32,000 bases of DNA from Candidatus Saccharimonadota bacterium. GTDB taxonomy: Bacteria > Pseudomonadota > Gammaproteobacteria > Enterobacterales > Enterobacteriaceae. Numbering within the stretch: position 1 is the stretch's first letter; the number at the start of each line of letters is the position of its first letter. The position numbers and the translations under genes were made by a program. Below the pieces are notes generated by a model, which had not been told where the DNA came from, did not search any database, and saw only the letters and a program-made list of their open reading frames with translations. Positions 12,591 through 14,597 of this stretch are shown piece after piece. The DNA lies in assembly GCF_023585745.1 (NCBI RefSeq), contig NZ_CP097762.1:390001-422000 (forward strand). The letters run 5' to 3'.

Positions 12591-14597
12591 ATGCAAATAA
12601 TTACTGCGATCAGTGTCATATTTTTTATATTATTATATAATTTAGAAGCAAAAGCTAGTAATATAAAACATATTAAACACTATTTTGATAACAACAATTC
12701 CCTTCTAGAATATATACATATACCAACCACAAAATTACCTATTAACAATTATTATGTTCCTTACAATTTAAATAATCATTTTAATAACAAAATAAAAAAA
12801 ATAAATACCCCACTGTATACATATACAGAACCTTTGCGTTCAAAGCGCAATTCAACAATAATACAATTAAAAAACGATTCAATAGATGTGTTATATTCAT
12901 TTTTAGGTCAGAATAACACACTAAAACACACCACATCCTTTATACAATTAGGAATAAATAAAAATTGCTGCTCAAAAAATAAAATAATTAATATAGGAGT
13001 CGGAAAAAAATATTCACTTAATAAATATTGTGGAATTGGATACAATACTTTCTATCATTGCCCTATTTCTACAGAAATATATAAACCACATGCAATTAAT
13101 GTAAATCTAGAATATTGGATAAAAAATACTTCATTAACAATAAAAAATTATTTTAATTTATATAGTAACAACGACTTTCATCAACATCTATATCAACGAT
13201 GCCATATAATGCATCCCAAAAATGGCCAACAAATTAACATTCAAACTAAATCCAAATATTTTCCACAATTTACCGGAATAATAAAATTAGAACAATTTAA
13301 TTATGACAAACAATACAAAAAATTTTTTTATAGAAAAAATAACCGTTATGTATCACTGGAATTAAATTACCAACCTATTCCAATATTAAATTTTAACATA
13401 AACAATATTTTTACAGATAAAAAACATAAAAATACTATTTGTCAATTTATTATAAATTACCAATTTGGTATACCTATCTTACAGCAAATACGCTCTGTAA
13501 AGGATAAACTAATATTACCGTATCATCATGATATAAAAATCATACAATTCTTTATTCCTACTGCAACACAATTAAATAATTATACACTATTTAATCAATT
13601 TAAAAGTTATAAAGAATTTGTACAACAAAACACTAACATAGTTTCTGGATATCCTGGAGAAATTAAAATTATTCAACCTTATAAAAATAAGCTGTCTACA
13701 ACAGTAGACAATACACAATCATTAATAAATCCAGGAGATAATATTGTCGCATTAAACAATGACGCTTATATTGTTCGCTTATCTAACACCCCTGAAACAA
13801 CAGAAGTTATAGATATAACATATACTAAAAGCCAAAATAAAACCAATAAACTAAATGAATTACGCGTTATAACAAAAAGCTTTCCAAAAAATACTATTCC
13901 TGATCAACAAATTAATGACCCCGATATTAACACTAGTGATGAATTCAAAATAAACCTTAAAAATAATACTATTCAACAAAATAAACAAACACATGAAATA
14001 ATACCAACAATCAATTCAAATAATTCAAAATATGACAGCAGTGATGATGATAACATCATATTAGATCAAATCCCATACATAGAAAATCAATATGATGATA
14101 CAACTATAAAAACAAATGATTTTGTATTTCCAACGCCACCACCTATGTTAGAATCTCTAGAACTTTTTTCAACAAACACGACAGAAACGCCTCCAAGTAG
14201 AGCAACATCAACACAAAATGATAATAATAATAAAATTCCAACAACAACTGCTGCAGAATTCCAAGAAATGGAACCAACTCCTCTATCATCAAGCTTATCA
14301 ACAAAAAAAAATGACAATTCTATTCACACAGAAGAAAATTATCAAAACAATGCATTAAATATGCAAGATGATAATCTTTCATTATCAATGCTATTAATTA
14401 ATAACAAAAATAAAAATTTCTCTTCCATAGGAACCCAAGAATATCTTGATAAAATTGAAAATACTATAAAAACTCAAAAGAACACTAAAAGATACAGTGA
14501 TATAGAAAAAGTATTTATGAAATTACATCAAACTGATTCTTCTTCTTCCATAAGTGAAGATTGTTTAACTGATGACAGTAATAACAGTTACTACTAA
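12591..14597 (+). CDS. secreted outer-membrane protein with an inverse-autotransporter (intimin/invasin-like) beta-domain and a low-complexity C-terminal passenger
   Basis: There is a signal peptide, MQIITAISVIFFILLYNLEAKA. Residues ~95-300 carry, in order, NIGVGKKYSL, GIGYNTFYH, NLEYW, KLEQFNYD, LELNYQPIPILNFNIN and FIINYQFGIPILQQI. These parallel the intimin/invasin barrel motifs as I recall them. The last ~240 aa are N/D/S/T/P-rich. The 668-aa ORF is intact in a genome that is otherwise decaying. Confidence 0.6.
   Translation: MQIITAISVIFFILLYNLEAKASNIKHIKHYFDNNNSLLEYIHIPTTKLPINNYYVPYNLNNHFNNKIKKINTPLYTYTEPLRSKRNSTIIQLKNDSIDVLYSFLGQNNTLKHTTSFIQLGINKNCCSKNKIINIGVGKKYSLNKYCGIGYNTFYHCPISTEIYKPHAINVNLEYWIKNTSLTIKNYFNLYSNNDFHQHLYQRCHIMHPKNGQQINIQTKSKYFPQFTGIIKLEQFNYDKQYKKFFYRKNNRYVSLELNYQPIPILNFNINNIFTDKKHKNTICQFIINYQFGIPILQQIRSVKDKLILPYHHDIKIIQFFIPTATQLNNYTLFNQFKSYKEFVQQNTNIVSGYPGEIKIIQPYKNKLSTTVDNTQSLINPGDNIVALNNDAYIVRLSNTPETTEVIDITYTKSQNKTNKLNELRVITKSFPKNTIPDQQINDPDINTSDEFKINLKNNTIQQNKQTHEIIPTINSNNSKYDSSDDDNIILDQIPYIENQYDDTTIKTNDFVFPTPPPMLESLELFSTNTTETPPSRATSTQNDNNNKIPTTTAAEFQEMEPTPLSSSLSTKKNDNSIHTEENYQNNALNMQDDNLSLSMLLINNKNKNFSSIGTQEYLDKIENTIKTQKNTKRYSDIEKVFMKLHQTDSSSSISEDCLTDDSNNSYY

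Follow-up and report, generated by a model that had tools for sequence, protein, structure and literature searches.

Intimin (Eae of enterohaemorrhagic and enteropathogenic Escherichia coli, EHEC and EPEC) and Yersinia invasin share a common plan, in which a signal peptide precedes an N-terminal 12-stranded β-barrel of the IAT_beta family and the barrel in turn precedes a C-terminal passenger. We report that an open reading frame (ORF) in the 32,000-nucleotide stretch of contig NZ_CP097762.1 analysed here (the window) follows the same plan, and that its barrel is homologous to those of intimin and invasin both in sequence and in fold. The ORF (12591..14597, + strand) is uninterrupted, begins with ATG and comprises 668 codons. 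Its 668-residue product is 100% identical to NCBI entry WP_250223002.1 from Candidatus Blochmannia ocreatus, an obligate endosymbiont with a carpenter ant host. Unlike intimin and invasin, the Blochmannia protein lacks a LysM domain as well as a Big_1/Big_2 array and a C-type lectin-like tip. Its passenger is instead mostly of low complexity with short conserved motifs and is found in Blochmannia only, and the organism itself is a cytosolic mutualist as opposed to an extracellular pathogen.

Two further comparisons help to place the protein. YchO/YchP (NCBIfam NF007556) is likewise a short enterobacterial inverse autotransporter (IAT) and plausibly represents the ancestral type, although its passenger is unrelated to that of the Blochmannia protein. 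The other comparison is an analogy. Cytosolic pathogens display linear motifs of a eukaryotic type on surface proteins such as Listeria ActA, Burkholderia BimA and Rickettsia Sca2 and RickA; the Blochmannia protein resembles these proteins in being, by prediction, surface-anchored and largely disordered, with proline motifs and a conserved terminal module. However, searches revealed neither sequence homology to these proteins nor a WH2 or Arp2/3-binding signature; the Blochmannia protein is anchored by another secretion type, and no actin phenotype is known for Blochmannia. The protein is best classed as an IAT with a motif-bearing passenger that is not immunoglobulin (Ig)-like, in an obligate cytosolic mutualist.

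The β-barrel

The first-pass annotation of the window described the gene as an intact inverse autotransporter of the intimin/invasin type, and Pfam, phmmer, AlphaFold2 (AF2) and Foldseek all agree with this assignment. The profile hidden Markov model (HMM) check that it had proposed was positive: Pfam IAT_beta (PF11924) matches residues 91-303 with E=5.9e-19 and 69.1 bits, compared with a gathering score of 22.3. The same family was found in 10 of 10 orthologs (best E=3e-27) and in 9 of 10 further ones. When the barrel region was searched with phmmer, both invasin (4e1t, E=2.7e-9) and intimin (4e1s, E=9e-4) were recovered, and the alignments to these two structures contain the same residue pairings as the barrel motif correspondences given in the annotation. 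Across the barrel, the ratio of non-synonymous to synonymous substitution rates (dN/dS) is ~0.17 and the mean pairwise identity 0.65.

AF2 was run on residues 85-440 using a 14-sequence alignment, resulting in a model with a mean predicted local distance difference test (pLDDT) score of 49.5 that could be used for the barrel alone. It contains 12 strands followed by a helix, with pLDDT reaching 63-84 over the first half of the barrel but dropping to poor values over the second. The barrel model is thus of moderate quality, and weaker in its second half. Its top three PDB matches in Foldseek were 4e1t, 4e1s and 5g26 (E 9e-6 to 7e-5, probability 1.00), with target-normalised template modelling (TM) scores of 0.41-0.43, while other barrels scored orders of magnitude worse. 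The prediction of a 12-stranded barrel is therefore borne out by the model, with invasin and intimin as the closest folds. The domain order is the inverted one, with a hydrophobic N-terminus (residues 1-22) followed by the barrel and then by 365 residues downstream. By family, by fold and, through homology, by topology, the protein is an inverse autotransporter (type Ve).

The best NCBIfam match was the YchO/YchP equivalog, but at 46.1 bits it fell short of the cut-off (508), and it covered the barrel only. The protein is thus an IAT but not a recognisable YchO ortholog. A match to Enterotoxin_b (16.6 bits, cut-off 25), seen in 1 of 10 orthologs, was dismissed as chance.

Upstream of the barrel, the signal peptide had been called clean. 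Inspection by eye upheld the good hydrophobic core and the A-K-A site, but revealed no basic n-region; a hydrophobic N-terminus is also present in the orthologs. The segment between signal peptide and barrel is poorly conserved, with a mean pairwise identity of 0.48 overall and of 0.19 when the window protein is compared with the others. The LysM domain of the intimin type had no Pfam match in the window protein or in 10 orthologs.

Retention and selection

Two routes led to the orthologs: look-up of exact proteins and a search that started from the adjacent UbiX. The gene is intact in all 26 orthologs examined and, in each of the 11 loci fetched with their flanks, is located between fumC and ubiX, despite ~40 million years (My) of divergence. 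Seven loci of Camponotus symbionts show this same position and an intact IAT_beta gene. Protein length varies from 573 residues in the Colobopsis obliquus symbiont and 646 in the Polyrhachis turneri symbiont to 680 in B. floridanus and 749 in B. vafer. Several Prokaryotic Genome Annotation Pipeline (PGAP) annotations start at an internal Met, yielding proteins of 620-624 instead of 661-670 residues, with ~47 residues and the signal peptide omitted. In the one genome checked, an open frame extends upstream and includes the signal peptide, so these short forms reflect start-codon calls as opposed to lesions. Truncated or pseudogene orthologs were hence rejected as an explanation in favour of annotation inconsistency.

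Whole-gene dN/dS ranges from 0.22 to 0.31 (Nei-Gojobori method, few closely related pairs), which demonstrates purifying selection on the IAT gene. The earlier proposal that selection maintains the gene thus holds, given its intactness in all genomes examined, its synteny in all fetched loci and the dN/dS values. No ortholog was broken by stops or frameshifts, no whole-gene dN/dS value was near 1, and the HMM and fold searches each returned the expected barrel family. As ompA, oprC, secBDF and tonB are reported to have been lost in parallel among Blochmannia lineages (PMC4389277), it is notable that this 2-kb gene for a surface protein has been retained universally. Outside of the genus no relatives were recovered: when either the whole protein or a profile of barrel plus β-module served as the query, word-indexed searches for homologs reached Blochmannia proteins only, and a profile-guided scan and a degenerate GYPGEIKII DNA pattern, both applied to the GTDB collection (evidently without Blochmannia), gave unrelated loci only.

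The passenger

Conserved islands alternate with fast-evolving spacers rich in N, D, S, T and Q over the 365 residues that follow the barrel. This map was derived from region-wise statistics, a 9-sequence genus-wide (deep) alignment and a 26-ortholog conservation profile (Table 1). The description of the passenger as novel and disordered understates its structure, as it overlooks the conserved islands, among them the proline motif and a C-terminal module that matches the barrel in conservation. Big and lectin domains are absent, as had been noted: no Big_1, Big_2, invasin_D3 or lectin match was detected in any of 10 orthologs at E up to 10. The tail is indeed GC-richer than its surroundings, if modestly so (0.32 over residues 509-592 compared with 0.23 for the barrel).

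Immediately after the barrel, a helix is predicted by AF2 at residues 296-307. The linker that follows has a dN/dS of ~0.32, with F321 and P323 at least 90% conserved in the 26 orthologs. The β-rich module reaches a conservation peak of 0.80 over residues 351-360 in the same set, and strands are predicted here in both AF2 runs with low confidence. A profile of this module matched no Big/Ig or other family in Pfam or in a PDB profile search; the best PDB match, an SRPBCC protein (E=0.013 over 40 residues), looks like chance. Spacer 1 has a mean pairwise identity of 0.38, a dN/dS of ~0.40 and an AF2 pLDDT of ~23, and the corresponding identity and dN/dS for spacer 2 are 0.33 and ~0.65. The full-length AF2 run, based on a 10-sequence multiple alignment, gave a mean pLDDT of 29.8 and was unusable.

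The proline-rich motif is located between the two spacers. Residues P514 and P516-P518 are invariant in the deep alignment, and the motif occurs in 26 of 26 orthologs at 128-176 residues from the C-terminus, although degenerate in a few. Proline constitutes 3.2% of the neighbouring proteins, and the chance expectation of the motif is ~0.0007 per protein. The proline codons differ synonymously between lineages which, taken together with this low expectation, indicates that the motif is selected at the amino-acid level. Several lineages have a duplicated motif, with passengers in proteins of 731-788 residues carrying copies ~40 residues apart, and this suggests that motif copy number evolves. 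The longer two-motif forms probably come from Blochmannia of other ant hosts (Logan assemblies). As a side observation, runs of three to seven prolines stall ribosomes that lack elongation factor P (EF-P), and the IAT gene, with its PxPPP codons at 14130-14144, could be one of a small number of clients that maintain efp and its modification genes, if Blochmannia keeps them.

The conserved C-terminal unit of ~75 residues combines a basic helical module with a Ser/Asp/Glu tail. The module has a mean pairwise identity of 0.66, equal to that of the barrel, and dN/dS values ranging from 0.03 to 0.10 within the pennsylvanicus clade, with 0.29 for the vicinus pair. F610 is invariant genus-wide, and three helices are predicted with low pLDDT. 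In the tail, S650, S652, S653 and T660 are at least 90% conserved across the 26 orthologs; the terminal aromatic is either Phe or Tyr rather than an invariant residue, and is missing in B. floridanus. An exhaustive hmmsearch of 1.84 billion representative proteins, using a profile that extends from the proline motif to the C-terminus, found 15 proteins. All 15 are 600-788 residues long with the match at the extreme C-terminus, and of the 10 scanned that were not already known family members, 9 carry IAT_beta. The passenger from proline motif to C-terminus is therefore confined to the Blochmannia IAT family. No homolog of the C-terminal module was found in PDB or Pfam; the best PDB matches of its profile, the N-terminus of the CERT START domain (E=0.9) and H-NS (E=0.94), are likely due to chance.

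Table 1 Features of the IAT gene and its product, in window coordinates.
Feature	Coordinates	Strand	Residues	Details
Probable Sec signal peptide	12591..12656	+	1-22	MQIITAISVIFFILLYNLEAKA, followed by S; hydrophobic N-terminus then A-K-A, by eye
N-terminal segment before barrel, presumed periplasmic	12657..12860	+	23-90	No Pfam match
Inverse-autotransporter β-barrel	12861..13499	+	91-303	Pfam PF11924
Linker after barrel with FIP(T) motif	13500..13637	+	304-349	FIP at 321-323
Membrane-proximal β-rich module	13638..13886	+	350-432	GYPGEIKII...G(G/D)NI...Y
Variable low-complexity spacer 1	13887..14120	+	~433-510	57% N/D/S/T/Q
Proline-rich motif	14121..14153	+	511-521	FVFPTPPPMLE; core P514-x-P516-P517-P518
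Variable spacer 2	14154..14366	+	522-592	Richer in Pro/Thr/Ser; GC 0.32
Conserved C-terminal helical, basic module	14367..14531	+	593-647	L..L....K.NFSSIGT.EY..K(I/L)EN.I...K..K..SD(I/M)EK(V/I)F.KL
Ser-rich acidic tail with aromatic end	14532..14594	+	648-668	DSSSSISEDCLTDDSNNSYY
Stop codon	14595..14597	+

The degree of constraint on the passenger bears on the question of whether selection acts mainly on the barrel, for the sake of outer-membrane integrity or as an envelope tether, with the passenger as tolerated baggage. This explanation starts from the loss of OmpA and Lpp in some lineages, and the parallel loss of ompA, oprC and tonB could have raised the value of a remaining barrel protein. 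The barrel is among the most conserved parts and the spacers evolve fast, in line with such a role. However, conservation of the C-terminal module equals that of the barrel, and in three of four pairs no other region has a lower dN/dS. The proline motif has been kept at the amino-acid level for ~40 My, and no lineage has truncated the ~1.1 kb of passenger-coding DNA despite the strong deletion bias evident in eroded neighbours. The constraint on the passenger tip makes a purely structural role of the barrel unlikely, and we consider this explanation improbable.

The nature of the conserved elements raises a different possibility, that of a mimic of the actin machinery. The order of proline motif, basic amphipathic helices and acidic, aromatic-ended tail, together with the predicted display on a bacterium that dwells in the cytosol, resembles the proline-rich, WH2, central and acidic regions of nucleation-promoting factors (NPFs), as in ActA, BimA, RickA and Sca2. 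Proline block, helices and tail could then act in the recruitment of profilin, Ena/VASP or Arp2/3. Yet no match to WH2 (PF02205), thymosin (PF01290) or the WASP family was obtained with Pfam in the protein, its orthologs or the isolated C-terminal modules. No WH2 or WASP chain was found in PDB at E up to 10, and none appeared in the exhaustive scan. These negatives for WH2 and for verprolin-central-acidic (VCA) regions demote the actin mimic to a highly improbable reading. Furthermore, the tail has Phe or Tyr instead of the Trp typical of Arp2/3-binding acidic regions, and no conserved LKKT/V-type L(K/R)(K/R)(V/T) motif is present. No actin tails have been reported for Blochmannia, the published phalloidin staining having covered gut muscle only (PMC3009655).

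Proposed role

No symbiosomal membrane separates Blochmannia from the bacteriocyte cytoplasm (PMC3009655), so that a conserved tip would spend most of the life cycle exposed to cytosolic proteins of the host. This location strengthens the earlier suggestion of a host-interface factor facing the bacteriocyte; display on the surface in vivo, partners in the host cytosol and the role outlined below are inferred. The reading we put forward, to which we assign a probability a little below even, is that of a surface tether or docking device displaying short motifs of eukaryotic style towards the host cytosol.

Following Sec export, the 12-stranded barrel would insert in the outer membrane and serve as the conduit by which the C-terminal 365 residues reach the cell surface. 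In place of a rigid Ig-like rod, these residues are envisaged as a flexible low-complexity tether bearing three conserved elements: the membrane-proximal β-module, the P-x-P-P-P motif and the ~75-residue basic helical tip. Short proline motifs are ligands of the eukaryotic SH3, WW and EVH1 modules and of profilin, and a host proline-recognition module of one of these kinds may read the motif. The C-terminal module may bind a second host partner or a membrane. Ser-rich acidic tails are typical substrates of acidophilic kinases, and the tail of the Blochmannia protein is possibly phosphorylated. Docking of this type would tether the symbiont to host machinery, with potential benefits for positioning, protection from degradation and transfer into oocytes or new bacteriocytes.

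A number of points weigh against such a docking device. No expression, proteomic or localisation data were found for the protein, and Pfam, PDB and exhaustive HMM searches revealed no domain or motif family known for eukaryotic interactions. AF2 confidence is very low across the whole passenger, as expected for disorder, and the models provide no positive structural evidence. The β-module is degenerate or absent in the symbionts of Colobopsis and Polyrhachis, two deep lineages. The dN/dS of the IAT gene lies at the upper, relaxed end of the range for ten neighbouring genes (0.05-0.35, same pairs method), and is equalled or exceeded only by kdsB in one pair. In characterised IATs, the folding of Ig-like domains presumably powers passenger secretion, and a largely disordered passenger may be exported differently or poorly. 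Finally, proline-rich stretches are also present in bacterial envelope proteins that have no host role.

The main rival is a classical extracellular adhesin or invasin that binds an outer host-cell receptor during short extracellular or cell-to-cell phases, on the way to oocytes or new bacteriocytes, much as Yersinia invasin binds integrins. We regard it as rather unlikely, and it is compatible with the docking reading. The homology of the barrel to those of invasin and intimin fits this role, as does the long-standing database label of 'putative adhesin'. Blochmannia also seems to exit bacteriocytes and to enter oocytes and enterocytes with the help of factors that remain to be found (PMC3009655). 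On the other hand, searches detected no adhesive fold, whether Ig-like, lectin or other, and the bacterium is nearly always in the cytosol. In addition, conservation in the passenger is highest in a short proline motif and in a helical tip, acidic and rich in Ser, that a disordered tether carries; such parts would make an atypical extracellular receptor-binding head.

A more far-reaching version of the docking reading is that the passenger constitutes a motif scaffold, comprising a proline ligand and a phosphorylatable acidic tip, which has been kept for ~40 My in a mutualist with a ~0.75-Mb genome and recruits host cytosolic proteins to the naked symbiont, such as profilin or adaptors of the cytoskeleton or of trafficking with SH3, WW or EVH1 modules. 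The protein would then be the mutualist counterpart of factors of the ActA, BimA or Sca2 type, acting in positioning, escape from autophagy or delivery to oocytes. We hold this version to be unlikely; if true, the long-sought host-interaction or invasion factor of Blochmannia would be identified.

Ancient insect endosymbionts have lost nearly all surface and secretion factors, and their communication, positioning and transmission are largely unexplained. The gene described here is a concrete, universally retained and constrained candidate for contact between Blochmannia and its host, with sharply defined elements that are predicted to be exposed (PxPPP and the C-terminal 75 residues). Should the passenger bind host cytosolic proteins, motif mimicry in the style of pathogens would also occur in a 40-My-old mutualist. 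Export of the passenger as proposed would mean that inverse autotransporters can export largely disordered passengers that are not Ig-like.

Annotation status

The gene is not unrecognised, as its existence and family are already annotated in GenBank. It has been labelled 'putative adhesin' since 2005 in B. pennsylvanicus BPEN, with the same label in B. chromaiodes, and the recent PGAP name is 'inverse autotransporter beta domain-containing protein'. Literature searches combining Blochmannia with invasin, adhesin or inverse autotransporter, and searches on endosymbiont IATs, found no paper on this protein in the library covered. As far as can be told, its retention in all Blochmannia genomes examined, the island-and-spacer architecture, the proline motif and the lineage-restricted C-terminal module are undescribed.

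Genomic neighbourhood

The window has an overall GC content of ~27%. To the left of the IAT ORF, the gene order is sufCDSE, ribE, grx, rnt, slyA, pdxH, tyrS, nth and fumC, and to the right it is ubiX, kdsB, ycaR, lpxK, msbA and rpsA, onward to serS, lolA and ftsK. The sufCDSE, ribE, grx, serS, lolA and ftsK genes were assigned by a Pfam scan of window ORFs, and rnt through rpsA via the Pfam families of syntenic counterparts in the ortholog loci; the cmk, aroA and serC ORFs were placed by gene order only. All other large ORFs checked are housekeeping genes, in line with the original report of the IAT ORF as the only large one without such an identity. A 118-aa ORF at 31337-31693 (- strand) has no Pfam match at E up to 1e-5. 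The envelope and lipopolysaccharide biogenesis genes lolA, kdsB, lpxK and msbA are all kept in the same window.

In E. coli, ihfB sits between msbA and rpsA. The reported erasure of this gene is supported, as ihfB is absent from the msbA-rpsA gap (19286-19894, 610 bp), where the longest ORF has at most 33 codons, and thus appears eroded. Very low GC values (0.14-0.19) are found at 26501-27500, adjoining serS/lolA, and at 29501-31000. Part of the latter (29501-30000, GC 0.154) falls within the ftsK ORF (28186-30525), and the last low-GC stretch is located downstream of ftsK. The first and the last of these stretches are consistent with eroded genes, for which the first-pass annotation suggested rarA and lrp.

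No Shine-Dalgarno sequence is visible at the IAT gene. A scan of promoters and terminators returned 25 sites, compared with 21.7±5.0 in shuffled sequences, the AT-rich nature of the DNA making such a scan uninformative. For the adjacent ubiX (14703-15311, - strand), the best 120 UbiX matches, other Blochmannia aside and at 57-66% identity, are all from Alphaproteobacteria where named (Brucella/Ochrobactrum, Mesorhizobium, Rhodobium and Azospirillum), with no Enterobacterales among them. This pattern may reflect an old horizontal acquisition or a bias of the word-indexed search. A single tRNA gene was located at 4597-4669 (- strand; Rfam RF00005, 64.9 bits), in the ~1-kb ORF-free gap between sufE and ribE.

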